From: Candidatus Thorarchaeota archaeon
GTDB taxonomy: Archaea; Asgardarchaeota; Thorarchaeia; Thorarchaeales; Thorarchaeaceae
NCBI GenBank assembly: GCA_008080745.1
Contig: SHMX01000003.1
Coordinates: 450,001 to 482,000 of the forward strand
Reading direction: 5' to 3'
DNA: 32,000 nt
The notes under the pieces are model-generated. The model was given only the letters and a program-made list of their open reading frames with translations. It searched no databases and was not told the DNA's origin. Position numbers and translations under genes: made by a program. Shown in pieces: positions 3,375-22,405 of the stretch (position 1 is the first letter of the stretch; every line of letters begins with the position of its first letter).

Positions 3375-3695
3375 TCATTTTTCAGTGAAGTGAAACAGAC
3401 CATCACTACCCTTCTGGATTATCACAGAACAGCCAACCTCAAGAGAGGATATTGCATCCTTATCCCCATGACATAGGATTGTCGCACCACTAGAGGTTTC
3501 AATTAGAGCTAAAATGAGGGGTGGTTCAAAGCCTTCAGGAGGCATTTGGGAGATTGTATAGCTAAGGATTGTTCCTTCAGATCCCAAAGGAATCTCTTCT
3601 ATAATATCAATGGCTGGGCCACAATAAGGACAGAAACTCCTTGCAGGATAAATTGTTCTATTACATTCAGAGCATCGTGAGGCTATTTCTGTCAT
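3375..3695 (-). CDS. DUF35-family Zn-ribbon/OB-fold protein (thiolase partner)
   Basis: RCSECNRTIYPARSFCPYCG (2x CxxC) then OB-fold GTILSYT...PPEGF. Start moved to the Met at 3695 (MTEIASRC), which has a purine-rich upstream segment. Confidence 0.9.
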   Translation of the reverse strand: MTEIASRCSECNRTIYPARSFCPYCGPAIDIIEEIPLGSEGTILSYTISQMPPEGFEPPLILALIETSSGATILCHGDKDAISSLEVGCSVIIQKGSDGLFHFTEK

Positions 3696-3760: not shown

Positions 3761-4111
3761 TCAAGCAGAAGGTCTAGTCTTCAAGGTGCGAATAACAGAT
3801 TTGAGATGTTTCTTGATGAATTTTCGAAATTTAGGATCTTCAGATAGATAGATCATGGTGGAATCTTGCATTCCATCAATGTTACCATCGACTTCAACTG
3901 CATCACCCAGTTCGATTAAATCCCGTTTGAATATACCTTCAATTGCATGAGGAGAGAATCCTTCCTTTTTAAAGACTGGAAAGATTTGTCCTTTAGTTCC
4001 AGCGCCTTTTAGTTTTAGAAGAGAAAGAATTAGAAGCCAATGATGCCATGCAAGAGTATAGTTTTCTAAAAATCTCATGACTTCGGAGAGTGAGCGTGTC
4101 ACGGTTTTCAC
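3761..4111 (-). CDS. Hypothetical basic protein, possibly winged-helix fold
   Basis: 116 aa; GTG start with GAGTGAG upstream, 1 nt after the previous stop. Three helices then a beta wing (AVEVDG...TMIYLS). Confidence 0.6.
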   Translation of the reverse strand: MKTVTRSLSEVMRFLENYTLAWHHWLLILSLLKLKGAGTKGQIFPVFKKEGFSPHAIEGIFKRDLIELGDAVEVDGNIDGMQDSTMIYLSEDPKFRKFIKKHLKSVIRTLKTRPSA

Positions 4112-4112
4112 C

Positions 4113-5510
4113 TCACTCTTCAGCAGAAGAATCAGATTCTTCTCCTACTTCGTCTGTTTTGGATTCACCATCCGAATCATCAGGTGTTTCTTGTATAGCA
4201 TCCTTGATACTCTTTGGACGAATCTTATCATCCTTAATTTCAACAAGACCTATGTCAACAAATTTCTGAAGATTTCGTTTCAATAATACAGTTGGTACTC
4301 CCAGAGCTTGAGAGATATGTTGTAGAGGCAGCCAAGAATATTCTTTATCAGCAATAAGGAAGTATGCTTTGAATGCAGGTTCGTCTTCAGCTACTTGATA
4401 GAGCATATCCCAACGCGCTTTTAGTTCCTCAATCTGCTTATTTAGAGCAACTAATTCTGCCTCATGGGTATCATTAAGGCCCCGCTTGGAAGAGAGTTCA
4501 TCACTCATGGAAATAATTTTCCACTCAAGCTCTCCAACTTTTTCATTAAGACCTGCAATTTGTTGTTGATAAGTTTGAATAGTTTCATCTTTCTGTTCGA
4601 TTCGTTCTTCCAATTCAGAGATGGTACCAGTTAAACTAGCTACTTCCTTCATTTTCTCTTCATAGTCACTTGTTATATCTTTGGCATCTTCAAGAGAAGC
4701 GATTAACTCTTTTTGCTGTTTCAATTCAGATTCAGCTTCTCGAAGAGAACCCTTAAGGACAGAGATTTCATGTCCACGACCCTCCATTTGACCAGAGAGT
4801 TCAGAATAAAGATCTCTGAGTCGGTCCATATCACTTTCCATTTCGTCAATGATCTCTTCTTTCATTCGTAAGCGCTCTTCCATCTCCTTGGATTTTGCTC
4901 GCCATCTCCTTGCAGAAGACCTTTCTTGTTCCAGTTGTACGTCAAGCTCATTGACTCGGGCATATAATTGAATAATTTTACCTTGAAGAGAACTTGTGGA
5001 TCTGCCCACATTACGGATTGCTCCGCGGGATGCCTTTTCTAAGATATCTTTTGCAGATTCCTGTCCTTCTTGAATAGTATCGTAAATTGGTCCAAGCAAT
5101 TTTCCTGGATCTAAACCGGTTTCTAGTTCATCTTGTACTGTCTTAATTGCCTTTGTTGCAAAAACTCCCAATCCCATTGATTGGAATTTTTTCTTTAGAG
5201 ATTGCATCATAGTGCTTACTTGTTCCTGAACAAAGGGATCTGTGGCTTTGACCGTGTCCTCGATCGAGGCAAGAATATCAACGATTCTAAATTCGATTCG
5301 TTGGAAAGTTTCATCAATGATTGATGCTTCTTGCTCTTGAGTTACGGAATCATCGGGCTCCTTCTCATCGGTTTCTTCGGGTATAGGAAACGGAATGGTT
5401 TCTGTGGAACCCCCGATACTCCTTTTCATGGCTGCTTCCATGAGTCGTTTTGTTTCAGCTTCCAAATCTGGAATATCTGTTAGCTCAGAATCTCCGTTTT
5501 CTTCAGGCAA
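4113..5510 (-). CDS. Long coiled-coil protein with C-terminal winged-helix domain
   Basis: TTG start with GAGGTG RBS. About 200 aa of continuous heptad-like E/K/Q/L sequence, then LPLQHISQALGVPTVLLKRNLQKFVDIGLVEIKDDKI (wHTH). Acidic termini; no Walker A motif. Confidence 0.75.
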   Translation of the reverse strand: MPEENGDSELTDIPDLEAETKRLMEAAMKRSIGGSTETIPFPIPEETDEKEPDDSVTQEQEASIIDETFQRIEFRIVDILASIEDTVKATDPFVQEQVSTMMQSLKKKFQSMGLGVFATKAIKTVQDELETGLDPGKLLGPIYDTIQEGQESAKDILEKASRGAIRNVGRSTSSLQGKIIQLYARVNELDVQLEQERSSARRWRAKSKEMEERLRMKEEIIDEMESDMDRLRDLYSELSGQMEGRGHEISVLKGSLREAESELKQQKELIASLEDAKDITSDYEEKMKEVASLTGTISELEERIEQKDETIQTYQQQIAGLNEKVGELEWKIISMSDELSSKRGLNDTHEAELVALNKQIEELKARWDMLYQVAEDEPAFKAYFLIADKEYSWLPLQHISQALGVPTVLLKRNLQKFVDIGLVEIKDDKIRPKSIKDAIQETPDDSDGESKTDEVGEESDSSAEE

Positions 5511-5521
5511 CTATTAGCACC

Positions 5522-5890
5522 TCAAACTGCGACTCCAGGATGACCTAGTGCTATAAGCTGGGAAGAAGTTTCACGAATACCATCAGTGATTTTCGCAGCT
5601 TCTTGAATTCTATTCATGAGCTCTTTTCTGAATTGAATTGCTGTCAGTTCGCCACTATCGAGTCGTCGAGTGAGTTCACTCCGCTCTCTCTGAAGTTCTT
5701 CACGTCTGGCAACCAAACGCTGATATTCAGCAATTAGCTGGGTTATCTTCTCCTTTGATTCAGGAGTCTGTTCAACTTCTGACTTTTTGGGAGTGCGTTC
5801 TGGAGCTTCGACTCTCATTATTTCGCGACCTCGTACAACGGTCTTCTTTTCTTTCTTTTCTTTACGTCTCCATCTGTCGAATAATCCCAT
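5522..5890 (-). CDS. Small coiled-coil protein with basic amphipathic N-terminus and SHOCT/steadiness-box-like motif
   Basis: Start placed at MGLFDRWRRKEKKEKK (ATG 5890, GAGGTG upstream); RRLDSGELTAIQFRKEL motif. Confidence 0.65.
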   Translation of the reverse strand: MGLFDRWRRKEKKEKKTVVRGREIMRVEAPERTPKKSEVEQTPESKEKITQLIAEYQRLVARREELQRERSELTRRLDSGELTAIQFRKELMNRIQEAAKITDGIRETSSQLIALGHPGVAV

Positions 5891-5904
5891 TTGGATTTCC
5901 ACCT

Positions 5905-6465
5905 CTATTTCATAAATTCTTCTACTTCTTTAAGTCGTGATTCCAATTTCTCTCGCATCTGACTCGCGACCTCTGCTTTTTCATAGTACTCATCAGCACT
6001 AGCAGGATCGGTCATGGCCATCTCTTCAAATTCGGATTCCTTCTCAAAGAGTCTTGCTATCTTTAGCTTCAATTCATCAGTAACCCGCTCTAGTTCCTCA
6101 CGAGATTGGGTTTCTGAGGTATCTTCTTCGGTCGTGGATTCATCCTCAATTGAGTCAGTAATAACAACACTCGACTTACCTAGCTCGGATTCCTCCATGC
6201 CCATAATGTGAACCTTGATTCCCTGATTCAATCGTTTTTCAAGGGTTTCAAGTCTGCTCATAATGCCATCCATTGTATCATGCAATTTCTTGATGGCTAC
6301 TGTCTGACGATTTATCGTCTTGAATATCTCATCTGCAAATTTTTCGAATTCTAATCCGTATGTGAAACTATCGAGGGATTTTTTGATGCGGTCAATTTCA
6401 TCTATTAGTCGTACTCGTTCCTCTTCGCTAATGATACTCTTGGTTATATCACTCATATCTACCAT
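5905..6465 (-). CDS. Acidic coiled-coil protein
   Basis: 186 aa; two helical coiled-coil segments separated by an acidic linker. ATG directly follows the TAA of the GTPase gene. Confidence 0.65.
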   Translation of the reverse strand: MVDMSDITKSIISEEERVRLIDEIDRIKKSLDSFTYGLEFEKFADEIFKTINRQTVAIKKLHDTMDGIMSRLETLEKRLNQGIKVHIMGMEESELGKSSVVITDSIEDESTTEEDTSETQSREELERVTDELKLKIARLFEKESEFEEMAMTDPASADEYYEKAEVASQMREKLESRLKEVEEFMK

Positions 6466-7347
6466 TTAGTCCACCTCGATATCTCCCACTATATGAAAAT
6501 CAATCTCTTCAAAAGCCAGCATCCTAAGAAGTTCTAGCCATCTGTCACGAAAATCACGTTTATTTGCCTGCATACCGTATGCAGGGACTCCAAGCCGTTT
6601 GGAAACCTCCTCAGGAGATAGTGCTCCTTTCAGGTCCTGCTTATTCGCGACAGCAATTATTCTTGCATAAGGAAGCTCCGCTCTTAAGACCGGATACGCT
6701 ACACGTTTGGTCCATGATATATTATCCTTCGTGGAGTCACTTACAATGACGACCATGCTCCCTGAACGAATAATCTTCCCCCATTCCTGTACAAAACGAT
6801 CCTGACCACCGAGATCAAACATGCTGAAAACATATGGATCAAAATTTCCGCGTAATAATGCTTTATCACCGAAAAAGGTTGGTACATAATCCTGTGGTGG
6901 TCCTTGTGAGGGAAGAGTAGCTAGTTCTAGTAAAGTTGTTTTGCCTGTACCACCATGACCTGCCAGACAGACTTTCACAGGAATTCGTCCTACTATCTTA
7001 CGAAAGTGAGAACCAAAGGATGAGAAATCAGTTGATTTCCAAGCCCCACTCTCCAGCAAATCTTGATAGTCCTCCATGAATTTTGAAACTAGGCCCATAA
7101 GTGCCTCATGGACCTTTCTAATGGAGGCTTGTCGGTCCATTGTAACTATAAATTGGGTGTCGTGACTATTCATGTACATGTATCTATAACGTTCAATCTC
7201 CAGATTGTCTATTTTCCATTCTTGGAGCTTTTTCGCAGAGGAAGACACTAACATCATAACTGCGTTTGAATCTAAATCGATGTTTGGGATGATTATATCT
7301 TCAAATAGTGTTTCGCCATCTCGGAATATGTGGATTTCACGAATCAT
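6466..7347 (-). CDS. Longin-domain/small GTPase fusion (Arf-like Ras-superfamily)
   Basis: G1 GHGGTGKTT, G2 YVPT, G3 DLGGQ, G4 NKQD, G5 region MQAN. The N-terminal ~120 aa (MIREIHIFRDGETLFE...LVSKFMEDY) has a longin-like pattern. Confidence 0.85.
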   Translation of the reverse strand: MIREIHIFRDGETLFEDIIIPNIDLDSNAVMMLVSSSAKKLQEWKIDNLEIERYRYMYMNSHDTQFIVTMDRQASIRKVHEALMGLVSKFMEDYQDLLESGAWKSTDFSSFGSHFRKIVGRIPVKVCLAGHGGTGKTTLLELATLPSQGPPQDYVPTFFGDKALLRGNFDPYVFSMFDLGGQDRFVQEWGKIIRSGSMVVIVSDSTKDNISWTKRVAYPVLRAELPYARIIAVANKQDLKGALSPEEVSKRLGVPAYGMQANKRDFRDRWLELLRMLAFEEIDFHIVGDIEVD

Positions 7348-7458
7348 CTAGTAGTCACTCCGGCACCCGCATTGCATGATGACACACAGCTGCTCATCTA
7401 GGTCCCTAAACAAATCTACTCCAAATAGGAATTTGAGGGTATGTTGTTTATCATTCAT
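7348..7458 (-). CDS. Possible 36-aa ORF in frame with, and abutting, the GTPase gene
   Basis: My translation: MNDKQHTLKFLFGVDLFRDLDEQLCVIMQCGCRSDY*, with TAG immediately followed by the GTPase ATG. Below the ORF-track cutoff. Confidence 0.25.
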   Translation of the reverse strand: MNDKQHTLKFLFGVDLFRDLDEQLCVIMQCGCRSDY

Positions 7459-7534
7459 TATTGGGATTTTGAACATTTTTTGTATCACCGTGCTGAATCG
7501 TAATATTCTAACATTTCTCATTAATCATAATAAA

Positions 7535-7572
7535 GATAGGAGAAAGGGAGGATAAACCCCCTCTCAACTATC
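7535..7572 (-). terminator. Hairpin downstream of the giant surface-protein gene
   Basis: Minus strand GAGAGGGGG-8nt-CCCTTTCTC (9 bp with 2 G-U pairs that form only on this strand), flanked by GATAG/CTATC, then TTTATT. Confidence 0.6.
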
Positions 7573-7585
7573 TCAGTGGTAGGTT

Positions 7586-10500
7586 TTATTCTTCTAATTC
7601 GTCCTCCTCAGGTTCATCTAAGTCAGACTCTTCAGTATCGATTTCTGCAGAGGCTTCGTCCTCAGCTTCACTAGCGGTATCCTCTTCTTCGGACTCGGAC
7701 ACATCAGTGTCGGACTCGCTATCCTCGCTGGATACTTCTTCCTCGGCTGGTTCTTCTACCTCTTCGACTTCTTCTTCGGGAGTCTCTTCAATACCTTCCT
7801 CAGAAACCTCGGGTTCGGTAATGCTTTCATCTTCAGCTTCAATCTCAGCTTCACCCTCTATCGAGTCAGTTTCAGCATCATCTTCAGGAAGTTCAGCTTC
7901 TTCGTCACCCAAGTCATCCTCTGTAGACTCTGTTTCTTCGACTTCATCAATGTCCTCAGGAAGATCATCAGACTCAATATCTACCTCGTCAACCGTGATG
8001 GCATCAAGTTCTGCACTAAGTTCCTCCTCAATTGAGGGGCCAGTGTCAACAAAGTCTGTGCCTTCAGTTCCAATCTCGTCAAGTGCATCTAGTTCACCTA
8101 GAAGATCATCGGTCTCATCTGTGAGAAGATCTTCATAGGGCTCTTCGATGAACTCATCGATTACTGGAGCGGTAATGTCGAGATCAGCCAATCCAGGAGC
8201 TAGGATATCTGATACAACCATGCCCATGGTGGCAATACCTTCGACACTAGCAGGCTTACCATTCTCGATGTCACTGATTGCTCGGTTAATCTGTTTGATG
8301 TGGAATGGAACTCTCCATCTCTGAATAGCTACTACTGCCAAGCCTATTACAATGAATAGACCAGTCATTACACCGATAGTTGTCAGAGTTGAAACTGGTA
8401 CTCTAAAGCCAGTACCCAGAATGTCAACGGTTGGTTCAGAAACAGTCACACGAAGTGTGGATGTCTTATTCTGATACATCGGAGCGGATGCAGAGATACT
8501 TAGTTCATATGGAGCTGATTGGATAACACCAATCTGAGCTGTAGTCAATTGAATTGAGTAATGTGTTCCATTGAAGGTGAAGTCATCCAGATCAAAGGAG
8601 GTTACTGGAGTTGTCAGAGTCATCTCAAGACCAGATATTGTTGGAGTCATTGGTACATCTGATGATATATCCAAGAACTGCCAAGTAAGGAGGAAGTTCA
8701 TCCCGTCCTCTACAACCCGATCCTGTCCCGTCAATGAAGTGTCTGCATATATAATGAGAGTTGGATGGATGGTTATTGAGGTGTAGTTCTGCAGTGTTGC
8801 AGTGATGTTCAATGTGAACATACCAGGAATCTTACTGATTGGCATTAATGACGGATTGAAGTTCATCAGATAGGTTCCACTGGAGGATCGATAGGTTGCG
8901 GTGAATGGTTCACCAGCGTACATCATTGTGATGCTAGCTCCTGCAAGAGCACCAGTGAGGTCAACCTGAAGATCTGCTACTTCGAACTCCAGAATCACAT
9001 CAATACCTGTCACACCATATGTTGTAGTGTATATGTCCTCATTAGGTGTAAGAGAGGTGTCAACTGTTGCTATGGTAACAGGGATAACCAAATCAGGTAT
9101 AGTATAGTTCTCGTTATCTACCCGGACAATCAAGTTGTAACTGCCAGCGGGCACTTGAGAGGTATCTACTGTCACTGCATAATCGTTTGGAGATGGTAAG
9201 AAGGTCAAAGCATATTGAGTTGTGTAGCCACTCCAAATATAGTAGACATAGACATTCTCTAGAGTTTCAGTAACCAAGTAGATTCGGTTGACTTCAACCT
9301 GAAGGTCGAAAGTCTCGGACCACTTGTAAGTGGGAGAATCCTGAGTTGGTGCCACCTTTATACATTCACCCTCAATTGGGTCAATGTATAATGATGTCAT
9401 GTTCACGTTGTCAACATAGTTAGGCAATGTGTATGTGAAGGTTAGATTGTAGGCACCATAAGAGGCAGCAAACCAATCATCTGATGTTAGCTGAATCTCA
9501 AAAGTTCCATCACCATTATTGGTCATGACCCATGAGTAATCATCCATAGTGATTGTGACCTCAGCACCTAACCAAATGAAACCACCATGTAAGTCATCGT
9601 AGAGAGATGCTGTGATGGTGAAATCATCTGTCCAATTCACATGTCCAATCGGATCAATCACCAGTGAAGCATCTGTCTCTTGGACCAATACTATAACAGT
9701 AGTCAGTTGATGGCTTGCATATCCAGACTTCTCCATTGTGATTTGTATCACATAGACCGAACCTTGCACATTAGCATTCATATTCAGAGCCTTGGTATCA
9801 ACCGTAAAGGTGTACCAACCACCACCAAGATTGTACATTGTTGCAATCTCAGTGGAGGGGCTAAGTAATTGATACAGTTGACTATCAGGGTTGTCAATTG
9901 TTCCGCCATCCAGAGTGTTATTCCAATAGAAGGTAACATTGAACACATCTGCATAGAATTGTTCAAAGTATTGACTATCTAGGACTATCTCATTCGGTAC
10001 GGAATTAATTCTGACAAATACAGTTGTGATCGCAGTGGTTGCATCAGCCATTGTTGCAGTGATGGTAATTGCATAGAGGTCATCCTCCATAGGTACCGCA
10101 TCAAATGCATTCAGAGTGGTATTGTATATTCCACCAGCGTATGGATCTAGAGTACCTGATTGGTCAACCACGAACTCCATGTACCAATTGTATGCCACTG
10201 TAGCCCCAAGCACTGGGTCATTATCACGGGACTGATCCATTAAAGTAATCTCGATATCGAAGGTGTGAGTCCAATATGCCTCTAATGGGCTCTCAGCTGA
10301 ACCATATTCAGTCTGAATGAACAATGGAATCCTAACAGTGATATTCAGAAATACTTGGGCATCCTCGTGATTAGTCAATGACATAGTGATATCTAAACAG
10401 TAATCTCCAGACTCGATCAGAGTATTGACTTGGAATCGGTAGGTACCAGCCCCAAGATACTCAACTGTGACGGATTTGCTCCAATTATGCACATAGCTTG

Positions 10501-13500
10501 CACCAGCAAGCCCTGTACCATCAGTTCTATTGAATACGAGGTCAAAGTGAAGAGATTCACCCCAATCAACAACTACATCTCCACTACCGACTGGTTCAGG
10601 ATTTAGGTCAGTCTGTGCTGCAGAAACTACAAAATAGCTATCAGTCATCCAAGCAAACTCGTAGTTATTCTTACTGCATGTCACGTTGATATGCCAATTT
10701 CCAACAGGGAGAAGATCTTTTGAGAAATCATATTCATAGACTCCTATTGTCTGTGACATGATAGAGGTCTCAGTGAGATAGACTTGTCCAGTATCATTGT
10801 TAATCCAATACACAGTCACTGATATTCCTGTAAGGCCAGGATCAGTTGAGTTGGTACTGAATTGATATTCAAATGTGAACGAGTCAGCTGCTGGAGACCA
10901 TTCATAATTTGATGGACCTGTTAATACTACCTCCATTGGTACCTCGTCTATGACAAGGTCGACAATAATTGTCTGTCCAACGTAATTCTGTTTATTCAAG
11001 GTCACAGTAAGAGTGTAACTACCTACATTTAATCCATGAATTGCAGATGATGGTAGATCGTAGAAGACTCCATTCTCAGATAAGAATCCTGATCTTAGCA
11101 GAGTCGTACCACGCTTAATTGTCCATGAGTAGACCGAAAGATCTGTGACATTCACGTCATTGGTTATATCTTCAAGCCAGAAACTGTGGTCGGTATGTGT
11201 TTTGTAATAGTCGTTTATCAAATAGGTATCAAATGCATCTTGTGTTGTCTGTGCATTTAGAACTGTCAGGTAGATAGTCAGTTCTGTTGGGTCATCATAA
11301 TTTGCTGGATTGGCATGTGCCCAGACTTTGATGACATAAGGTGTATCCGATGCATTTAGCATCCAGTAATCAGTGTCAACAATCATTGTGAAATTGATTG
11401 CATCTTCTTTGATGACCCAATCATATGCACTTTGATTCCACGTACCAGTTGCCACAGGTGTTATACCCATGTATACAGTGTAATTCACCCAGTAGATATC
11501 ACTTGAAGGACTAATAGCACTTGTAGTTGTACCATCAAGGTCTCGATCAAAGAAACCAACAGTCCATGAGGCATTCTGACCCCATCGAACATTAAGGAAA
11601 TATGTCGTCGAATTCAGCTCTGTGTAACTATCAGCATAAGTTGGTGAGGCAATGGTCACGTTATTCCAGAACCACCAATCCTTATCACAAGTCGCATATT
11701 GAAGTGTTGCACTCTCCTCACCTGCAATAACTGATAGATTATATCCTACAGAATATGGTGTACTCATGTTAGCATGAATGAAAAAGAATGTAACATGACC
11801 TGTACTATTGGTAGTACCTTGAGCAACCAGGCCTCCACCGACTAAAGTCACATTCACTTGAGCTCCCTGTACAAAGGTAGTAGGACTTGTTCGAACGTTC
11901 ACGATCAAACGAGAAATTGGAATTTCAATCACTTGTTCGTAATATCCCTGTAAGTCTACGATTGATTCAGTATTATTTCTAGCCAGTGGGGTTTCATCAT
12001 AGTCATCAGCAATCCAAGCATCAATATTCCAAGTACCATTTACAACTCTGTAGAAGGTATAATTACCATTCTCATCGCTGTATTCAGTAATCTTGTAGAC
12101 ATCTTGGTCAACTGAGTTGTTGACAGTGATGGTAGCTCCTTCAATCATCTGTTCATCCCATGAGGGGAGATTGATTGTGAAGGTTACAAGCGGAATTTCC
12201 CAATAATATTCAGGAGTTCCACCAAATTCAGTATCAGAGATAGACCAGTTAGCAAATTCGAGAATATTGTCATAATTGTAAGATTCTACGGGTCCAGTAT
12301 ATCTTGCAAAGAAACTGTAGTCGTCTACTGGAATTCGGTAGAAATTCGCCCAACCAGTACTGTTGACTTCAGAAGTGAAGACATAGTTACTAGTCCCGTC
12401 ATTGGAACCATCAGTGATATTTGATGCTCTAATATAGAGGGTCTCATCAGCAGTCTTTGCAATGGTATCACCCATCAAATCTTCAGCATGAATGTCAAAG
12501 CTACCCATAGGCATGACAATAGTTACCGGAGTTACTGAACCAGTGATATCGTGGTTTGAATCGTTTCTAACCCAGACAGCTGTATAATCAGTAAAACCAC
12601 CTAGCCAGTTCTTTGCGTCAATACTAGTTTGAATCTCATAAGTTGCATTGTCGAGACCCTCGAACACAACTAGACCATTAGAATCAGTTGTATCTGTTCG
12701 GGTTCCACCCTGGTCGTCTGTCCAAAGAACGTGTGTGTTTGGATCATGTAGACTTACAGCAACGCCCTCTACTGGAATACCATCAACATCAACAACAGTG
12801 ATATCAAATTCAAACAGGTGTACTTCATCACCATATTCTGCAACTAACCTAGCTTGGTCAACATCAGAATGATAGGATGGAACCATCCATCCATATCCAG
12901 TATCGGAAGTTGGATTATAGGGTGCAGAAGTAGAAAATCTGCCTAGGTTGACAATACTAATGCTTGCATTGGAATTGATATGATACAGAGTCATTGAGGA
13001 CGATACCGGCCTGAATGCAGCACAGCCACCTGCAGGAATCTGAAGCTGGCCATCGTTGTAGCCGTCAATATCCACCAGTGCGTTTTCTTGAGCCACAATC
13101 ATAAACTTGTAAGAGTTAATACCCCACATTTTGAAGTCGGTGCCAAATCGATCTCCAGTAATAGTAGGCATCCAATCTCCAGCATCTCTTGCATTCGCTG
13201 GGTCATATACTCCTTCAACCATCAACATTGCTCCAGAATCACCACGGATGTGAGTCACATCTTCAGGATTAGTATCTGAGGCAACACCATGAGCAATTAG
13301 AGAAGAGCTGTTTGCCGCAACAGTGATAGTAGTCCATGAGGACCATCCAGATCCAGCATTGCGACGCCAGTCAACATCAACGGTAGAGTCTCCAAGATTT
13401 GTTACTCGTATCCAATCATTACCATTACCCATGTCAATGATGTAGAACTCCTCTCCAGCTAATTGACCATCTACTGTGGAATAGCATCCCCATATGTCTC

Positions 13501-14668
13501 GTGCAAATGCCGAATCAACGTCGCCTGCACGGAAAGATAGAAGATTGGTTGAATTAACCATTGAAATAACGTTGTAGTCAACTTGTCGCTTTGCTATGTA
13601 CTCACCTGCATCTAATACAGCAGGCCATTCTGTAACTGCAGAGCCATTATAGAATTCCCAAAGGGTGAAATCATCAGCAGCGCCAGTTGAATCCCATGCA
13701 TAAACTTCAGTGTTATCTTCCATTGCCTGAGCCCAATAAGTGCCCTCGTTTCGGTCATCAAATCCTTCAACTCCACCGAGGATAAACTCATGACCCACAC
13801 CATAACCAAGCTGGTCGACTCCGGGGAACCAATCGTTAATAGAAGGATTACTTCCTTCATCACCTTGACCCATATGTACTGATATTGGATAATTAGAATA
13901 AATGGCATAGAACCCATGGAAAAGCGAGTAAGAATAGGTACTTGGTTCGTATCGGGCTGCTTCAAGTTTGTCTAATGTTCCACTTGGAACATTACTTGGA
14001 TATACGCTACCAGATGAACCAGACCAACGAGCATCAAGATTTCGTGGATCATCCCATGAGTCTGTTGTGTCGTCCCACATCTCGATATAGTAATTGTTAC
14101 TATCGTGATATGAAATCATGCTGATTAATGAGAAAGTGTAACTCTTGTAGACGAAGGGATAGTAATCAGGATAACTAACTGTACCAACATCAATCTTGGC
14201 ATAATAGACATAGTAGTTCCAATCAAGTGTACCTTGAGTCATGTTGACTGAGAATGTAACTGTTGCTGATTCAATAAACTCAGCTGAATAATAAGTCACA
14301 TTCCAGACCTGGAAAGGTAACTGTGTCCATGTTTCAGAGCTGTTGTCATAGTAGAGTGCTCGGATGGATCCATCATAGCAGTGACCATTCTCAAAAGTCA
14401 GGTCGATATGTACCGGAACCAGAGTTCTGTCAGAAATACCTGGTTCTGTGAAATTGAAATACCTACGATAGATGTATGTCGAGTTCCACCAGTTTGCTAG
14501 ATCCTGTATTCCAGCAATCTCCATCTCTCCCTCTTGCATAAGCAACGGTGAATCCATTATGTAATCATCAGCAGAAGCTGTATTTGAAATAGGAGTACCA
14601 TTACTTGCTGGAAGGATGAGGAGTACTGCTAGAAAAATCATAATTGATAGTTTTAGTTTGGTATCCAT
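7586..14668 (-). CDS. Giant (2360 aa) single-pass cell-surface protein: signal peptide, DUF2341-like and IgGFc-binding-like regions, Ig-like repeats, TM helix, acidic cytoplasmic tail
   Basis: Signal peptide MDTKLKLSIMIFLAVLLILPA; WWNSTYIYRR..YVYYAK (DUF2341-like); four CarboxypepD_reg-like beta repeats; about ten ~100-aa Ig-like repeats; many NxS/T sequons; TM at ~8324-8390; ~245-aa cytoplasmic tail. Confidence 0.85.
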   Translation of the reverse strand: MDTKLKLSIMIFLAVLLILPASNGTPISNTASADDYIMDSPLLMQEGEMEIAGIQDLANWWNSTYIYRRYFNFTEPGISDRTLVPVHIDLTFENGHCYDGSIRALYYDNSSETWTQLPFQVWNVTYYSAEFIESATVTFSVNMTQGTLDWNYYVYYAKIDVGTVSYPDYYPFVYKSYTFSLISMISYHDSNNYYIEMWDDTTDSWDDPRNLDARWSGSSGSVYPSNVPSGTLDKLEAARYEPSTYSYSLFHGFYAIYSNYPISVHMGQGDEGSNPSINDWFPGVDQLGYGVGHEFILGGVEGFDDRNEGTYWAQAMEDNTEVYAWDSTGAADDFTLWEFYNGSAVTEWPAVLDAGEYIAKRQVDYNVISMVNSTNLLSFRAGDVDSAFARDIWGCYSTVDGQLAGEEFYIIDMGNGNDWIRVTNLGDSTVDVDWRRNAGSGWSSWTTITVAANSSSLIAHGVASDTNPEDVTHIRGDSGAMLMVEGVYDPANARDAGDWMPTITGDRFGTDFKMWGINSYKFMIVAQENALVDIDGYNDGQLQIPAGGCAAFRPVSSSMTLYHINSNASISIVNLGRFSTSAPYNPTSDTGYGWMVPSYHSDVDQARLVAEYGDEVHLFEFDITVVDVDGIPVEGVAVSLHDPNTHVLWTDDQGGTRTDTTDSNGLVVFEGLDNATYEIQTSIDAKNWLGGFTDYTAVWVRNDSNHDITGSVTPVTIVMPMGSFDIHAEDLMGDTIAKTADETLYIRASNITDGSNDGTSNYVFTSEVNSTGWANFYRIPVDDYSFFARYTGPVESYNYDNILEFANWSISDTEFGGTPEYYWEIPLVTFTINLPSWDEQMIEGATITVNNSVDQDVYKITEYSDENGNYTFYRVVNGTWNIDAWIADDYDETPLARNNTESIVDLQGYYEQVIEIPISRLIVNVRTSPTTFVQGAQVNVTLVGGGLVAQGTTNSTGHVTFFFIHANMSTPYSVGYNLSVIAGEESATLQYATCDKDWWFWNNVTIASPTYADSYTELNSTTYFLNVRWGQNASWTVGFFDRDLDGTTTSAISPSSDIYWVNYTVYMGITPVATGTWNQSAYDWVIKEDAINFTMIVDTDYWMLNASDTPYVIKVWAHANPANYDDPTELTIYLTVLNAQTTQDAFDTYLINDYYKTHTDHSFWLEDITNDVNVTDLSVYSWTIKRGTTLLRSGFLSENGVFYDLPSSAIHGLNVGSYTLTVTLNKQNYVGQTIIVDLVIDEVPMEVVLTGPSNYEWSPAADSFTFEYQFSTNSTDPGLTGISVTVYWINNDTGQVYLTETSIMSQTIGVYEYDFSKDLLPVGNWHINVTCSKNNYEFAWMTDSYFVVSAAQTDLNPEPVGSGDVVVDWGESLHFDLVFNRTDGTGLAGASYVHNWSKSVTVEYLGAGTYRFQVNTLIESGDYCLDITMSLTNHEDAQVFLNITVRIPLFIQTEYGSAESPLEAYWTHTFDIEITLMDQSRDNDPVLGATVAYNWYMEFVVDQSGTLDPYAGGIYNTTLNAFDAVPMEDDLYAITITATMADATTAITTVFVRINSVPNEIVLDSQYFEQFYADVFNVTFYWNNTLDGGTIDNPDSQLYQLLSPSTEIATMYNLGGGWYTFTVDTKALNMNANVQGSVYVIQITMEKSGYASHQLTTVIVLVQETDASLVIDPIGHVNWTDDFTITASLYDDLHGGFIWLGAEVTITMDDYSWVMTNNGDGTFEIQLTSDDWFAASYGAYNLTFTYTLPNYVDNVNMTSLYIDPIEGECIKVAPTQDSPTYKWSETFDLQVEVNRIYLVTETLENVYVYYIWSGYTTQYALTFLPSPNDYAVTVDTSQVPAGSYNLIVRVDNENYTIPDLVIPVTIATVDTSLTPNEDIYTTTYGVTGIDVILEFEVADLQVDLTGALAGASITMMYAGEPFTATYRSSSGTYLMNFNPSLMPISKIPGMFTLNITATLQNYTSITIHPTLIIYADTSLTGQDRVVEDGMNFLLTWQFLDISSDVPMTPTISGLEMTLTTPVTSFDLDDFTFNGTHYSIQLTTAQIGVIQSAPYELSISASAPMYQNKTSTLRVTVSEPTVDILGTGFRVPVSTLTTIGVMTGLFIVIGLAVVAIQRWRVPFHIKQINRAISDIENGKPASVEGIATMGMVVSDILAPGLADLDITAPVIDEFIEEPYEDLLTDETDDLLGELDALDEIGTEGTDFVDTGPSIEEELSAELDAITVDEVDIESDDLPEDIDEVEETESTEDDLGDEEAELPEDDAETDSIEGEAEIEAEDESITEPEVSEEGIEETPEEEVEEVEEPAEEEVSSEDSESDTDVSESEEEDTASEAEDEASAEIDTEESDLDEPEEDELEE

Positions 14669-15835
14669 TTACTCAACCCCCGCGACCATTTTGGTGGCCT
14701 GTGATGGATGGAACTGTCTAAGTACCTCCAAATAGTGCAACGCTTGACGACTTGGAATCTCTTCTGTATTGTACAAGGTTACAGTTCGATCAATTAGCCA
14801 CTCAGGATAGACCGTGATAACTTCAGGACTGCTCTTTAGCAGAACATGTTGTCTACCTTCTTCATCATTTACGGTAATAACAATACCAGCTTTTTCTAGT
14901 TCTTTTAGCAATTTGCGCAGGCTTCCCTGAGTTATGTCCAGCATACCAAGAAGATCTTCACCAACTTGTGGACCCGCTCTGAGAATCTGAAGCAGGTCAT
15001 AGACCTGAAAATCAAGTAGATACTTTGCTAATTCCTCAGCCTCTGCCCAAATAGTTTCTGAGAGGTCTTTCCGAAGTTTAGCGACATATTCGCGATGATA
15101 GCGCTTTGTAGTCTCCAAGAACTGTTTTGCAACAGTTGTTGGGATTTTACCAGCTTGTACTTTCCTTAAGGTCTCTACAGGTGTCTTCCTGAGAATAAGG
15201 ATTGCACGTGTGAGATAGACAACCTCTGAGGCAAGTCCCTCAACCCAACCTGTCGCAATGATACCCATCTTGACTAAAGGGCGTAGAACCATGTCCACAT
15301 CGATTTTCTTACCCACCTCTTCAAAGATCATTTGTTCCAGGTCCGCGTTTTGTACGGTACCGTTTCGAATCAGGGTCTGAAGAAGAGACCTACGTACAGG
15401 GTCACTTAGAATAGACGCTTGTCGTTGCTCTGGCGTCATCTGAGTGTACCGTGAAATCTGTTTGTATAACTTAGGAACCATCTTGACATACTCATCGTCC
15501 TCCAAATTCAAGAAGATCTGAGTGGCCATCTCAGGAAGAGCATCCTTGTACACATCTGGGTCCTCATCTGGACCAAGTACCAAGAACACCATAGATGGTT
15601 GTCCCTTCAAGTGCATGTTGAGCCCGCCGTAATATACTGCGAGCTTAAACTCATCAAAAGCAAGTGAATTAAATCCGGGCTTCTGTGACTCCTCGGTTTC
15701 ACCAAGAGTTGCAATACCATAGACCCGCATGGACGTAGTTGGGTCTAGACCGATTTGTAGACTCTTTGGCGTCTTGGAGGTAACCACAGGTCCCAGTTCA
15801 TCATCCCATTTTAGAACCGCGAGTCCTTCTGGCAT
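14669..15835 (-). CDS. uDENN/NPRL2-type longin domain plus two winged-helix domains
   Basis: LAVLKWDDELGPVVTSKTP matches the uDENN (F/W)(H/D)xxxGP start. wHTH-like segments ILSDPVRRSLLQTLIRNG and LLGMLDITQGSLRKLLKELEKAGIV. Start placed at Met15 (15835, GGAG upstream); the track start is 15877. Confidence 0.7.
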   Translation of the reverse strand: MPEGLAVLKWDDELGPVVTSKTPKSLQIGLDPTTSMRVYGIATLGETEESQKPGFNSLAFDEFKLAVYYGGLNMHLKGQPSMVFLVLGPDEDPDVYKDALPEMATQIFLNLEDDEYVKMVPKLYKQISRYTQMTPEQRQASILSDPVRRSLLQTLIRNGTVQNADLEQMIFEEVGKKIDVDMVLRPLVKMGIIATGWVEGLASEVVYLTRAILILRKTPVETLRKVQAGKIPTTVAKQFLETTKRYHREYVAKLRKDLSETIWAEAEELAKYLLDFQVYDLLQILRAGPQVGEDLLGMLDITQGSLRKLLKELEKAGIVITVNDEEGRQHVLLKSSPEVITVYPEWLIDRTVTLYNTEEIPSRQALHYLEVLRQFHPSQATKMVAGVE

Positions 15836-16071
15836 CGTTTTTTCTCCATTGTGATATCCGACAATATATGGAGTCATCTCTCGATAGAACTAAGGCCTAT
15901 TACGATAGCTGACCCCTTTAATTAAACCACAATTCTTTGTCCCTAGTGAATTATGAAGTGGTCTAACTGTTGTTCGTTCTGTGTTTCTTGAACAAATATT
16001 CCCTAATAAGAAAAATTCGTACGGATATTACAAAATGGAAATATGCTGATACTTTTACTAGATTATGGTAA

Positions 16072-17238
16072 CTAATTTTTACTCAGAAGTGTTACTAACA
16101 TGTTATTTCCAAAGCCGCCAATGTTATGGGTAAGTCCAATCTCAGGATCATCTACTTGAAGAGATGTAGGATACAATCCACGAAGTTGTAGAACGACATC
16201 TCTGATCTGTGCAATACCAGTAGCTCCAGTTGGATGACCACGAGCTTTGAGACCCCCACTTGGATTGACGGGCATGGCTCCACCAACCTCTGACGTTCCG
16301 TTTTTAATAGAGTCGATTGCCGCCCCTCTATCAGCCAGACCAAGGTCCTCCATGTTGACTAGTTCAAGAATAGAGAATGCATCATGAATCTCACAGACAT
16401 CAACGTTCTCGGGTTCGATTCCAGCCATGGTAAAGGCGAGATTGGCAGCATGAATCGTGGCATAGAAAGATGTTAGTGAGAGACGATGTTGAACAGCATG
16501 GTAATCAGTTCCATGTCCAATACCTATCACTCTGATTGCCTGATCTTTCAATCCTAATTGACGGACCATACTATCAGATGCAATAACAGCTGCAGCCGCC
16601 CCATCTGAAGTAGGACAACTATCATAGAGAGTTAGAGGATCTGCAATAATACGACTGGAGCTTACTTTCTCCACAGTCACTTCCTTCTGGAAGTGTGCGA
16701 GAGGATTCTTCGCCCCATTTCGATGTGCTTTAACAGGGACTAAGGATAGTTCATCACGAGTTAACCCATAATCGTGCATGTATCGCCTTGCGACCATAGC
16801 ACCTAGAGCTGCTGGTGTTGCTCCATAGCGAGTTTCGTTATCATAAGACATCATCTTTGCGAGAATTTTTGATGCAATACCACGTTTAACAGCGGACATC
16901 TTCTCAACACCGATCACCAATACCAATTCAGCAAGCCCGGATGCCACCATTGCATAACCGGTTTCAAACGCGCTGGATCCAGAAGATGGGCCAGTCTCAA
17001 CGCGAGTGGCTCCCGCAGGAACAAGACCTAGCCTGTCAGCAAGCAAGGTGGATAGATGACCCTTTCCAGTGAATTCATCGGGATTTTGAGAGCCTACGAT
17101 AATTCGATCAAAGGGATACTCCAGAGTCTGGGAATCCTCCAGTGCCTCGAAGGCGGCTTGTGTTGCCAAATCCGTAATTCCTTCTTCAAGCACCCCAAAA
17201 GGAGTCATTCCAACGCCAATTACATTCACATCAGGCAT
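16072..17238 (-). CDS. Thiolase-fold protein (archaeal/SCP2-type), atypical active site
   Basis: VIGVGMTPFG, SDGAAA, EIHDAF, NPSGGLKARGHPTGATG and HNIGGFG motifs; the usual E-x-x-C-x-S-G nucleophile motif reads ETGPSSG. Start placed at MPDVNV (17238). Confidence 0.9.
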   Translation of the reverse strand: MPDVNVIGVGMTPFGVLEEGITDLATQAAFEALEDSQTLEYPFDRIIVGSQNPDEFTGKGHLSTLLADRLGLVPAGATRVETGPSSGSSAFETGYAMVASGLAELVLVIGVEKMSAVKRGIASKILAKMMSYDNETRYGATPAALGAMVARRYMHDYGLTRDELSLVPVKAHRNGAKNPLAHFQKEVTVEKVSSSRIIADPLTLYDSCPTSDGAAAAVIASDSMVRQLGLKDQAIRVIGIGHGTDYHAVQHRLSLTSFYATIHAANLAFTMAGIEPENVDVCEIHDAFSILELVNMEDLGLADRGAAIDSIKNGTSEVGGAMPVNPSGGLKARGHPTGATGIAQIRDVVLQLRGLYPTSLQVDDPEIGLTHNIGGFGNNMLVTLLSKN

Positions 17239-17251
17239 ATGCATCCGACCT

Positions 17252-17779
17252 TTACTCAATCAGTATTAGCAAATCAGTAGGGGTGACCATTGAACCAATC
17301 TCAATGTTTACCTCTTTGACTACACCGTCCATTGGAGCCTTGAGTTCATTAAACATTTTCATGGCTTCTAAGATACAAACTGTCTGACCCCCTGAAACTG
17401 AATCTCCCGGAGATACATGAACCTCCGTGATTTTTCCAGGCATGGGAGGATAGACACCACCCTCAGCCTTTGGTCCGCCTTTAGATGCTGTGGGCGTGGG
17501 GGTAACACTCTCCTGACTTTTCAATCGACCCCATTCGAGCTCCCGAGACTCTCCATTGATCTCCAATTCTATCTTGGACCCAGACCGCTTCATTATATCA
17601 ATCTTGTAGTCGGAGGTGGTATCATTTGCGGTCCATGTTCCATCCTCATTTTTTATAGTCTTGATACTGTAACTCTGTTCACCGATCTTAACAATGAGGA
17701 GTCCTCCTTCATCAAGAGTCTTCACATCGACTTCGTATTTCCTATCATCTATCTTTGCTTCGTACTTTGGACTCATCAT
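17252..17779 (-). CDS. Stand-alone biotin carboxyl carrier protein
   Basis: EAMKM biotinylation motif, PPMPGKI, Pro/Ala/Thr linker. Start at 17779 overlaps the upstream stop (ATGA). Confidence 0.92.
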   Translation of the reverse strand: MMSPKYEAKIDDRKYEVDVKTLDEGGLLIVKIGEQSYSIKTIKNEDGTWTANDTTSDYKIDIMKRSGSKIELEINGESRELEWGRLKSQESVTPTPTASKGGPKAEGGVYPPMPGKITEVHVSPGDSVSGGQTVCILEAMKMFNELKAPMDGVVKEVNIEIGSMVTPTDLLILIE

Positions 17780-19356
17780 GGACCCCCCTGTTGTCGCGTT
17801 TTCATCAATCGTTTTCGCCCCACAGAACTCCAGCGAGAGGTTGCTCGTTCCCACTGTCCAGTTAATGTGACCACTCGGCTATCATGCAGGTCTTCCCGAG
17901 CATCTTGACTCCATGCACTACCCAGACCAAAGGAAGTGAGTGCTCCTCCGGCCTGTCTACTGCTATGTAGAACGGCCGCTATCAGGGCAATCTCGTGTTC
18001 TTCTGTAATCTCGCCCATCGTGGTTCTAGCTGCTTTTCTCTTCAAGAAGTCTAGAGCATACTGTGGAAAGAGTGCATACGAGACCAAATCTCGACGGTCG
18101 TGAGGAATATCCTTGAGTGCCTCTTTCGCCGTTGGTAATTCTGGTTCAAGCAGACTTGCAGGTCGTTCTGTGAGGGGCTCTTCATCTCCAATAATCAGCT
18201 TCTTGATCTCGGGGTCAATGGGTGCGGGAGGCCGACCATAGTATCCTCTCACATATTGCTTGACCTCGTGTGGGACCATCTTGTACCGTTCTCCTGTGAT
18301 GACATTCAGGGTGGCCTGGGTGCCAACTATCTGACTGGAAGGTGTGACCAGAGGCGGGTAGCCAAGGTCAGCCCGTACGCGTGGAACCTCTTCCAGAACC
18401 TCATCATATCGATCCAGTGCGCCCTGTTCTCTAAGCTGATTGTCCAGATTAGATAACATACCACCAGGAATCTGAAAGACCAACACCTGTGGATTCACGC
18501 CCTGTAGACTTCCCTCGAACTGTGCATACTTTCTTCGGATATCTCTGAAATAAGACGCAATATCCGCCAGAAGGTTGACATCCAACTTTGTGTCCCGCGT
18601 ATTTCCCTTCATGCTCTCAACAATGGACTCGGTAGCTGGCTGTGATGTTGCTCCAGACAATGATGAGATAGCACAATCAACCACATCAACCCCAACCTCA
18701 GCTGCCTTCAGATATGCCATAGACGCCATACCACTGGTATAATGGGAATGCAATTGTATCGGAATCGATATCTCCTCTTTCAGCCGAGTCACTAACTCTC
18801 CAGCTGCCTTTGGCGTGATCAAACCAGCCATGTCCTTTATACAGATAGAATCGGCCTCTAGAGAATACAACTCTTTTGCGGTCTCAACGAACTTCTCAAT
18901 AGTATGCACCGGAGAGGTGGTATAACTGATACTGGCCTGCGTGTGTCCGCCCTCTCGATTTACAAACTTCATCGCCGCCTCCATGTTCCTGACATCGTTC
19001 AGGGCATCAAATATCCTGAAGATATCTATCCCTGCCTTCACCGCCTCCTCTACAAAGACCTCTAATACATCATCTGGGTATTGCTTGTATCCCACAACAT
19101 TAGAGCCACGAAGAAGCATCTGAAAAGGGGTCTTAGGCATAGCGTCTTTGAGTAGTTCGACTCGTTCCCAGGGATCTTCGTCCAAGAAACGCATCATGCT
19201 ATCGAAAGTAGCCCCACCCCACATCTCAAGGGAGTGGTACCCGACCTTATCGATCTTCTCACAGATCGGAAGCATATGTTCGGTACGCATTCGAGTAGCG
19301 ATAAGAGACTGATGTGCATCCCGAAGGGTAGTATCGGTAATGAGTAATTTCTTCAT
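17776..19356 (-). CDS. Pyruvate/oxaloacetate carboxyltransferase (PycB/OadA/transcarboxylase 5S family), no fused biotin domain, epsilon-like C-terminal tail
   Basis: DTTLRDAHQSL, WGGATFD, IKDMAG, HSH, QIPGGMLSNL, PPLVTPSSQIVGTQA. The C-terminal ~80 aa are not biotinyl-like. Confidence 0.92.
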   Translation of the reverse strand: MKKLLITDTTLRDAHQSLIATRMRTEHMLPICEKIDKVGYHSLEMWGGATFDSMMRFLDEDPWERVELLKDAMPKTPFQMLLRGSNVVGYKQYPDDVLEVFVEEAVKAGIDIFRIFDALNDVRNMEAAMKFVNREGGHTQASISYTTSPVHTIEKFVETAKELYSLEADSICIKDMAGLITPKAAGELVTRLKEEISIPIQLHSHYTSGMASMAYLKAAEVGVDVVDCAISSLSGATSQPATESIVESMKGNTRDTKLDVNLLADIASYFRDIRRKYAQFEGSLQGVNPQVLVFQIPGGMLSNLDNQLREQGALDRYDEVLEEVPRVRADLGYPPLVTPSSQIVGTQATLNVITGERYKMVPHEVKQYVRGYYGRPPAPIDPEIKKLIIGDEEPLTERPASLLEPELPTAKEALKDIPHDRRDLVSYALFPQYALDFLKRKAARTTMGEITEEHEIALIAAVLHSSRQAGGALTSFGLGSAWSQDAREDLHDSRVVTLTGQWERATSRWSSVGRKRLMKTRQQGGP

Positions 19357-21193: not shown

Positions 21194-22405
21194 GTGGTGA
21201 ATCCTATGCAAGTCCGACATGCAAAACTACAGGACAGAGATGAGCATCTCAAAAATGCAAGGTATGCCTATAATATACCAGCATCGTATGAGGAGACTCT
21301 GCGTGAGCGATTCGAGAAGCATCTAGACCAATACTATTGTGTAGTTGAAAATGATAGTGTGCGGGCAAGTGGGAGGGTCATCCCCTTCAAACAAAATATA
21401 CGAGGAGTTCTCAGGTCAATGGGAGGTATCGCAATGATATCCAGCGCTCCTGAGACCAGACGACAAGGTTATGTTCGAGAACTGATGCGGTTCATGCTTA
21501 GCGATATGAATCAACGAGATATGAGCTTCAGTACTCTCTATCCATTCAAAGATGAGTTCTATGCTCGGTTGGGATATGTACCAATGCCACCATTTCACAA
21601 GCTTCAGCTTCGGGTGGACCTCATGATTAGATGGGAGATTCCTGAGGGGTATTATCTCAAGAAAATGTCAATTGTTGACGGGCTAGAATATGCGAAAATA
21701 ATCCACCGAGAAGCTATCACGGGAATTCATGGCACAGTAGTCAAATCTGATGAGAGATGGGAAGAATATGCTATGAGTAAAGACCCAGAGTATGTCTTTG
21801 CCTTCAACTCAGACGGAAGACCCATCGCGTTTATGAGATATGGAATTCAACACTATGGTGCGTTCAGGGACGATGACAAGAATGGAAGGATGGATATCAG
21901 CCAGTCCGGTATGTTTTGGAGTGACCGAATAGGAAAGAACATGCTCCTAAACTACATTCACAACCATGCAGATCAGGTGGTCACAGCAAATATTCCCATT
22001 CATTCCATCGACAAAGACTATTGGCACTGGACACAACGCTTCAATATTGGAGGTGTTAAGATTCAGGCGTACAATGTTGCTATGGCAAGAATCGTCAACG
22101 TTGAGAGGTTGCTAGTAGGTATTCCTTCTGATGTTGAAGGAGATCTGACTGTGCAGGTGAAAGATTCAATCTGCAAATGGAACGAAGACACCTTCACATT
22201 CAGCTGCGATGGAAAGAAACTCGATATAGATAAGACAGACGATAAGGCGTCTGTGGAAATATCCATCGAGGGGCTTACCAGTCTAGTATTTGGTACCGCA
22301 TCTTTGGAGACCATTACTGAACTGAAACAGATAACTGGCGATGGCGCTAATATTCTGAACGATTGGTTCTCTCCAATCACACCATGGTTTACAGAAGATT
22401 TCTAG
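21194..22405 (+). CDS. eis: Eis-like GNAT acetyltransferase with C-terminal SCP2-like domain
   Basis: GGIAMISSAPETRRQGY, TLYPF..FYARLGY, SCP2-like region (GLTSLVFG) and terminal PWFTEDF. Confidence 0.85.
   Translation: MVNPMQVRHAKLQDRDEHLKNARYAYNIPASYEETLRERFEKHLDQYYCVVENDSVRASGRVIPFKQNIRGVLRSMGGIAMISSAPETRRQGYVRELMRFMLSDMNQRDMSFSTLYPFKDEFYARLGYVPMPPFHKLQLRVDLMIRWEIPEGYYLKKMSIVDGLEYAKIIHREAITGIHGTVVKSDERWEEYAMSKDPEYVFAFNSDGRPIAFMRYGIQHYGAFRDDDKNGRMDISQSGMFWSDRIGKNMLLNYIHNHADQVVTANIPIHSIDKDYWHWTQRFNIGGVKIQAYNVAMARIVNVERLLVGIPSDVEGDLTVQVKDSICKWNEDTFTFSCDGKKLDIDKTDDKASVEISIEGLTSLVFGTASLETITELKQITGDGANILNDWFSPITPWFTEDF

Follow-up and report, generated by a model that had tools for sequence, protein, structure and literature searches.

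What a protein of the thiolase fold may still do when proline stands in place of its nucleophilic cysteine, and why it is encoded immediately behind a biotin carrier, are the questions raised by one gene (16072-17238, minus strand) of a 32,000-nucleotide stretch of Candidatus Thorarchaeota archaeon DNA (GenBank assembly GCA_008080745.1, contig SHMX01000003.1, positions 450,001 to 482,000), hereafter the window. Its product of 388 amino acids (aa), designated P0001, carries upon translation the motif RVETGPSSG noticed in the first-pass annotation of this stretch, and direct reading of the DNA (cgc gtt gag act ggc CCA tct tct gga) confirms the codon CCA of Pro84 at 16987-16989 (16989-16987 in the direction of the minus strand), where thiolases have the nucleophilic Cys of the E-A-A-C-A-S-G elbow. 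The thiolase fold with its N- and C-terminal domains is supported by the Pfam assignments Thiolase_N and Thiolase_C_1, by the top NCBIfam model (PRK06064, “thiolase domain-containing protein”, 413 bits at a cut-off of 420) and by the AlphaFold2 model (pLDDT 96.4 and pTM 0.95, from an input alignment of 47 sequences), which matches the DUF35-bound thiolase of M. thermolithotrophicus (6ESQ/6ET9) with a TM-score of 0.97 and a root-mean-square deviation of 1.3-1.4 Å. The look-up of P0001 in ESM Atlas gave nothing beyond generic “thiolase family” clusters. Judging from the comparisons set out below, P0001 is best described not as a normal thiolase but as one of the conserved proteins that make up an ancient Cys-less branch of archaeal/SCP2-type thiolases.

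Neither a sequencing error nor a pseudogene can account for the replacement, because Pro is invariant among homologues and its codon changes only synonymously. Thus, G-P-S-(S/A)-G is present in 120 of the 120 closest database homologues (69-74% identity; metagenome-assembled genomes (MAGs) of Thorarchaeota, Sifarchaeia, and Promethearchaeota), so the case considered at first pass, that orthologs would all have Cys at this position, is answered by Pro in every one of them, and the 12 loci compared, orthologous or related, spell this Pro as CCA, CCC, or CCT. The loss of Cys is fixed and selected. Within the sample of Asgard genomes analyzed, a single copy with 64-74% identity was found in 21 of the 22 genomes of the window’s family and in none of the other families, and between genomes the thiolase-like protein retains 69-73% identity vs 75% for the neighboring carboxyltransferase.

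The same replacement delimits a much larger group. The tree built with FastTree for 229 sequences (input: P0001 and the four paralogues of the same genome, thiolases from 80 genomic loci, and a set of 150 representatives at the 50% identity level) gathers all Pro-type sequences into a single 79-member clade (support 0.985), inside which the Thorarchaeota group is nested. The nucleophile site of this clade is occupied by Pro (46), Ser (27), or Thr (5), with one gap and not a single Cys, while in the alignment all 124 Cys-type relatives have Cys; the replacement by Gln typical of KSQ/CLF is never observed, and this decarboxylating ketosynthase-like family serves here as a mechanistic analogy only. 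Bacterial members belong to Clostridia, Chloroflexota, Ignavibacteria, Spirochaetota, Methylomirabilota, and other groups, and archaeal ones to Thor-, Hel-, and Heimdallarchaeota, Thermoplasmatota, methanogens, and one haloarchaeal-type contig. Only four positions discriminate the clade from the 124 Cys-bearing relatives, namely 84, 287, 379, and 244: Ala287 has a frequency of 0.91 inside and 0.23 outside the clade, Asn379 0.87 and 0.06, and Thr244 0.84 and 0.29, respectively, and P0001 possesses all three residues. At the same time, conservation is no lower than 90% for H285, D286, F288, N325, H335, P336, and the SDG loop, in the Cys-less and Cys-bearing groups alike. So few differences from true thiolases, with the other residues kept, argue for retained ligand binding or catalysis.

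As to the catalytic residues, HDAF (16375-16386) and GHP (16231-16239), reported at first pass as retained, were both located on the minus strand, and P0001 thus has the two His residues of the first oxyanion hole, His285 and His335. Ala287 stands in place of the acid/base Cys of HDCF, which 70% of Cys-bearing relatives possess, although HDAF occurs also in some Cys-bearing archaeal thiolases (7YVY, L031, L038, and L061). The alternative acid/base position, CxG, presumably corresponds to Asn372 of HNIGG in P0001, as aligned to the Zoogloea thiolase sequence. The change of KNH to KAH, listed by the first-pass annotation among the peculiarities of this protein, is truly there, but it was dropped as a signature, since KAH, NAH, and NSH are found in Cys-bearing relatives too. 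The oxyanion hole for the acyl-enzyme in PhlC has two donors, one being the backbone NH that belongs to the nucleophilic Cys (PMC6392133). Pro84 cannot provide a backbone NH, and therefore one NH of the second oxyanion hole is lost; with both Cys residues gone as well, covalent thiolase chemistry is excluded. The earlier expectation of a non-thiolytic enzyme is thereby upheld, and it extends to all orthologues, which also lack both the nucleophilic and the HDCF Cys. The His pair of P0001 may still polarize a thioester.

Comparison with characterized proteins places P0001 nearest to genuine thiolases. E-values of its matches are 9e-86 for 7YVY, 2e-70 for 6ESQ, 5e-49 for BbsB, 1e-31 for Ltp2 (6OK1), and 1e-23 for PhlC. 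The archaeal acetoacetyl-CoA thiolases (6ESQ/6ET9 and P. furiosus PFC_04095, 7YVY) resemble it in fold and length at ~38-40% identity and share with it the DUF35 partner gene, the His residues of HDxF and GHP, and HN(I/V)GG, 7YVY having even HDAF, but they possess the nucleophilic Cys within EAACASG where P0001 has ETGPSSG. The protein ST0096 of Sulfolobus tokodaii (4YZO; TMt 0.95 to P0001, ~33% identity) is of the Ser type, in contrast to the Pro type of P0001, with DNTSGSGG at the nucleophile and HDMA in place of HDCF; its motifs fit the L051/L063 branch of the Cys-less clade, ST0096 itself being outside the tree, and no function for 4YZO/ST0096 was reported in the literature searched. TbSLP of T. 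brucei (5AB4-7) differs from P0001 by its YDCF motif, 22% identity, and its eukaryotic, mitochondrial origin, and we know of no DUF35 or biotin context for it. To our knowledge, Cys-less thiolase folds have been given a function so far only as steroid side-chain aldolases, Ltp2 and Sal (CtSal). These combine a Cys-less thiolase fold with a DUF35 domain and use as the catalytic base the Tyr of YDHF/YDCY (PMC12329534). They are like P0001 in lacking the nucleophilic Cys and in having DUF35, which for P0001 is a predicted partner only, and unlike it in the Tyr base, which is replaced by HDAF, in distance (E-value 1e-31, TM-score 0.85), and in their steroid substrates, their occurrence in Actinobacteria and Proteobacteria, and the lack of any tie to biotin enzymes. 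From these distances and motifs, P0001 is placed outside the Ltp2/Sal group, and the first-pass analogy with an Ltp2-like aldolase is not borne out, as the Tyr motif is missing and P0001 is far closer to acetoacetyl-CoA thiolases. Thus, Cys-less thiolase folds with DUF35 partners are already known, and what is new here is the combination of Pro, Ser, or Thr with HDAF in the absence of Tyr, the breadth of the clade, and the biotin operon.

This operon is compact. The gene upstream of the thiolase-like one encodes biotin carboxyl carrier protein (BCCP; 17252-17779, minus strand, 175 aa, Pfam Biotin_lipoyl supported by NCBIfam) with the biotinyl Lys of EAMKM at 17357-17359, and it is preceded by a 5S-type carboxyltransferase (CT) similar to PycB, OadA, and transcarboxylase 5S (17776-19356, minus strand, 526 aa, Pfam HMGL-like and PYC_OADA, NCBIfam PRK09282 with 743 bits), devoid of a fused biotin domain. 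PycB and OadA usually have the biotin domain fused, and the separation of CT and BCCP is a natural split, given orthologues of 526 aa and 174 aa, respectively. The BCCP of the window and all its orthologues are separate proteins of 174-175 aa, with an N-terminal domain of ~85 aa of their own. The stop codon of CT and the start codon of BCCP overlap as ATGA (17776-17779), the thiolase-like gene begins 13 nt past the BCCP stop, and the order CT-BCCP-thiolase is observed in 20 of the 20 family genomes that could be checked, so the joint unit with the biotin carrier and carboxyltransferase postulated at first pass stands. Each of these 20 genomes, all with coordinates retrieved for both genes, has the CT domain and the thiolase gene on one strand, with the CT domain ~780 nt upstream. 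BCCP still adjoins the thiolase-like gene at the 63%-identical P0121, and at one Thorarchaeota locus, L018, CT and BCCP are missing upstream. By eye alone, a T-rich tract 3′ of the thiolase stop codon hints at an archaeal terminator, and a scan of the locus for promoters and terminators gave counts at chance level, the sigma-70 consensus being inapplicable to archaea. The opposite strand of the window (21194-22405) encodes an Eis-like GNAT acetyltransferase whose C-terminal domain is SCP2; its gene is transcribed divergently from those that precede the CT operon.

The BCCP of the window is the sole biotin carrier found in the genome, which is 98% complete and in which the search revealed neither biotin carboxylase (PF02785, PF00289) nor OadB; biotin carboxylase was likewise found in none of 41 family genomes, 38 of which contain the 5S CT. 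Two 12S-type carboxyltransferases are present in the genome, one of them inside the window (28270-29817, minus strand, PccB/MmdA-like, Pfam Carboxyl_trans, TIGR01117 mmdA with 860 bits), and the same gene is located 2 kb upstream of CT in L020, so that judging from sequence and gene order it is likely the other half of a transcarboxylase. Located 2-36 kb past the window are one gene for biotin ligase and two for methylmalonyl-CoA mutase. The gene set of a transcarboxylase is thus complete: 5S CT, separate BCCP with the MKM motif, and 12S CT, with no biotin carboxylase or OadB. It matches that of the Propionibacterium methylmalonyl-CoA:pyruvate transcarboxylase (12S + 5S + 1.3S), and given the failure to find biotin carboxylase in the 41 family genomes, the parsimonious reading of the operon would be a transcarboxylase of this type, which fits the conservation of propionate and methylmalonyl-CoA genes in Asgard archaea (bioRxiv 10.1101/726976). 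The classical transcarboxylase has no thiolase-fold or DUF35 component, while here the thiolase-like gene belongs to a conserved CT-BCCP operon. The prediction of a complex between the thiolase dimer and BCCP scored 0.00, below the mark, in a run that included no controls, and counts neither for nor against binding.

For the DUF35 partner suggested at first pass, a gene does exist, 12 kb away from the thiolase-like one, and their complex is a prediction from synteny. This gene (3375-3695, minus strand; 107 aa from ATG within an open reading frame extending to 3764; Pfam zf-ChsH2 and OB_ChsH2_C) has an orthologue that in L017 overlaps the thiolase gene at its end, and in L016 and L018 is located 3.3 kb downstream of it. 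The genome contains in total five thiolase paralogues and five DUF35 genes, and four of each form adjacent pairs, including that of the canonical HMGCS-thiolase-DUF35 cluster (L002), which leaves P0001 as an extra paralogue. All eight of the best matches of the window’s DUF35 protein among the fetched loci adjoin Cys-less thiolases of the same subclade, and of the 39 Cys-less clade loci surveyed, 28 have a DUF35-like reading frame behind the thiolase gene. Since synteny and co-variation point in the same direction, we infer that the product of 3375-3695 is the predicted cognate partner of P0001. Next to it, the conserved neighbor of the DUF35 gene encodes an acyl-CoA dehydrogenase (1625-2794, minus strand, identified by Pfam; top NCBIfam model acryloyl-CoA reductase AcrC, 351 bits, under its cut-off), 79% identical to the product of the gene following thiolase-DUF35 in L017; its adjacency to DUF35 is common to L016, L018, and this window. 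Of the orders observed, that of L017 (CT-BCCP-thiolase-DUF35-acyl-CoA dehydrogenase) is the most compact and may be taken as ancestral. The 12-kb block separating the thiolase-like and DUF35 genes in the window (3761-15877, minus strand) encodes a giant surface protein of 2360 aa, a 402-aa protein, an Arf-like GTPase, and coiled-coil proteins; it is missing between the two genes in L017 and shorter in L016 and L018, and hence appears to be an insertion into the older cluster.

Taking these data together, we tentatively favor, at somewhat less than even confidence, P0001 as a non-thiolytic acyl-CoA enolate enzyme, either decarboxylase or lyase, working with DUF35. Such an enzyme would still bind acyl-CoA, polarize its thioester, and form or stabilize the carbanion (enolate) at C-alpha. 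The acyl-enzyme would not be formed, Pro84 removing both the thiol and one NH of the second oxyanion hole, and enolate chemistry would be left to the His pair (His285 of HDAF and His335 of GHP), retained along with Asn325 and the SDG loop. The most likely acting form would be a dimer of P0001 bound to its own DUF35 protein. The context of the CT-BCCP operon favors as the reaction decarboxylation or enolate formation on a substrate of malonyl-, methylmalonyl-, or propionyl-CoA type, which may be made or used by the transcarboxylase operating without biotin carboxylase (5S CT, BCCP, and 12S CT). A precedent may be seen in TbSLP, for which PMC12329534 reports no thiolase activity, binding of malonyl-CoA, and very slow decarboxylation of the latter. 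Several points weigh against this proposal. No proton donor was identified in P0001 in place of the HDCF Cys. A free (methyl)malonyl-CoA decarboxylase beside a transcarboxylase would waste carboxyl groups. Furthermore, P0144, P0159, P0165, and the bacterial ENGPASG group with its AllFGH-like neighbors have no biotin genes nearby, and the link to carboxyl transfer may therefore be lineage-specific or mere co-regulation.

The variation of residue 84 is the next point, since the interchange of Pro, Ser, and Thr within one clade suggests that its side chain plays no catalytic role, and it speaks at the same time for a different explanation, according to which P0001 is a dead pseudo-thiolase, an acyl-CoA-binding scaffold or regulatory subunit that together with DUF35 organizes, for instance, the transcarboxylase or acyl-CoA dehydrogenase. 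The loss of both catalytic Cys residues and of the oxyanion-hole NH agrees with this, as does the fact that thiolase-DUF35 forms the assembly hub of the HMGCS complex and of the fatty-acid synthase complex of S. acidocaldarius (bioRxiv 10.1101/2024.07.05.601840). Conservation of H285, D286, N325, and H335 at the level of at least 90% across Bacteria and Archaea is, however, unusual for a pure scaffold, and the gene is kept single-copy across the family, which makes a purely structural role rather unlikely.

Distinctly unlikely is a retro-aldolase of Ltp2/Sal style, which with its DUF35 would cleave 3-hydroxyacyl-CoA to an aldehyde or ketone and acetyl- or propionyl-CoA, with His285 acting for the Tyr base, the 3-hydroxyacyl-CoA being supplied by the neighboring acyl-CoA dehydrogenase and a hydratase. 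In its favor, DUF35-partnered Cys-less thiolase folds of known function are all aldolases (PMC12329534), and His285 does occupy the position of the Ltp2/Sal Tyr; the compact thiolase-DUF35-acyl-CoA dehydrogenase order of L017 and the DUF35-dehydrogenase adjacency in L016, L018, and the window would also suit such a pathway. Yet the Tyr of YDHF/YDCY is missing, HDAF standing instead, the model is closer to acetoacetyl-CoA thiolases than to Ltp2 (TM-score 0.97 vs 0.85), no hydratase gene is seen in the conserved cluster, and the operon with CT and BCCP is left unexplained.

Just this operon would be accounted for if P0001 were a station of carboxyl transfer or decarboxylative condensation served by BCCP, where the enolate takes CO2 from carboxybiotin or condenses a malonyl-type unit without an acyl-enzyme, and this we regard as quite improbable. 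Its merits are the tight coupling of the gene to the genome’s only BCCP, the universality of the operon in the family genomes checked together with the failure to find biotin carboxylase there, and the retention of the enolate-stabilizing His pair. They are opposed by the presence in the genome of two canonical 12S carboxyltransferases, by relatives in other lineages that have no biotin neighbors, and by chemistry without known precedent in the thiolase superfamily; the search for fusions among longer proteins, which is weak evidence, returned no combination with biotin-enzyme domains, just unrelated fusions and eukaryotic ones of the SCPx type. There is a slim chance that the thiolase-DUF35 pair is a new kind of biotin-enzyme partner, fed by the 5S CT and the sole BCCP, that carboxylates or decarboxylates an acyl-CoA enolate or condenses it with no acyl-enzyme formed; if true, Thorarchaeota could make or use malonyl- or methylmalonyl-CoA independently of ATP and without biotin carboxylase, bearing on whether Asgard archaea can make fatty acids.

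A working thiolase with another nucleophile, such as Cys208 of YDSCPT or Ser85/Ser86, is hardly credible in spite of the intact fold and His residues and of the Cys that every orthologue seen has at position 207 or 208, as residues 85 and 86 vary among S, A, and T across the clade, the HDCF Cys is lost as well, and the Cys of D-C-S-P, whose position at the active site the first-pass annotation proposed to check, is found family-wide at the same spot and is equally common in true, Cys-bearing thiolases, which rules it out as a compensatory nucleophile, all the more that it falls by homology into what we take to be the SDG pantetheine loop, not the nucleophile elbow.

How far the association with biotin enzymes extends was evaluated across the clade. 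In the Thermoplasmatota MAG locus L021 (2253-12958), a 50%-identical gene of the Pro type is located beside the genes of PccB, biotin carboxylase, and BCCP, accompanied by a 98-aa OB-only DUF35 gene and a second biotin carboxylase-BCCP pair; neighboring reading frames resemble methylmalonyl-CoA epimerase, mutase, and crotonase, as judged by N-terminal sequences only. This surrounding is an independent point in favor of the acyl-CoA enolate enzyme proposed above. On the haloarchaeal-type contig L014, a 48%-identical relative adjoins a biotin ligase gene. No biotin neighbors were found at the clade loci P0127, P0128, P0144, P0159, and P0165, where only a small DUF35/OB gene is present. A clade-wide biotin link was therefore rejected, the association being confined to the Thorarchaeota group and these two loci, and the link to carboxyl transfer, as far as gene neighborhoods indicate, is strong within Thorarchaeaceae and not a property of the clade as a whole. 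In the bacterial ENGPASG branch, another cluster recurs, composed of genes for a ~230-aa protein, thiolase-like protein, DUF35, and AllH-like, AllF/FdrA-like (CoA_binding and Ligase_CoA), and AllG-like proteins; it is exemplified by L096 (7321-13639), was seen also in L025, L034, L044, L048, L055, L073, L075, L081, L083, L085, and L092, and spans many phyla together with one Bathyarchaeia and one Heimdallarchaeota locus. AllG and the AllFGH-like cluster genes were not found in the genome of the window, and the literature searched for a link of thiolase-like proteins plus DUF35 with AllFGH contained nothing usable.

The delimitation of a larger and older Cys-less clade in Bacteria and Archaea, which keeps the rest of the active site and the DUF35 partner and lacks the aldolase Tyr, has a practical consequence for annotation, since genes of this kind labeled “acetyl-CoA C-acetyltransferase” should be left out of the thiolase count when metabolism is reconstructed. 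Nearly all Thorarchaeaceae have this gene, within the operon of the sole biotin carrier. Knowledge of the reaction of P0001 would close a gap in the C3/C4 acyl-CoA metabolism of Asgard archaea (propionate, methylmalonyl-CoA, and transcarboxylase) and might extend the chemistry known from the thiolase superfamily.

Some related proteins deviate from the described types in other respects. Members of the Ser-type branch (P0126, P0135, P0139, P0147, P0163, and P0186) are often 480-540 aa long, and two of these six, P0147 and P0163, have a C-terminal extension with weak matches to OB_ChsH2_C, suggesting fusions of thiolase-like protein and DUF35. In L041, L060, L065, and L080 (MAGs of Thermoplasmatota and Halobacteriales), the thiolases of HMGCS-thiolase-DUF35 clusters have Asp, Gly, or Ala instead of Cys, and such Cys-less thiolases in mevalonate-type clusters raise the question of the source of acetoacetyl-CoA in these organisms. 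Within the genome of the window itself, the paralogue L005 (G000:C3:418592-419629, 431 aa) has Gly at the nucleophile position and is followed by a 219-aa gene encoding a longer DUF35-containing protein.

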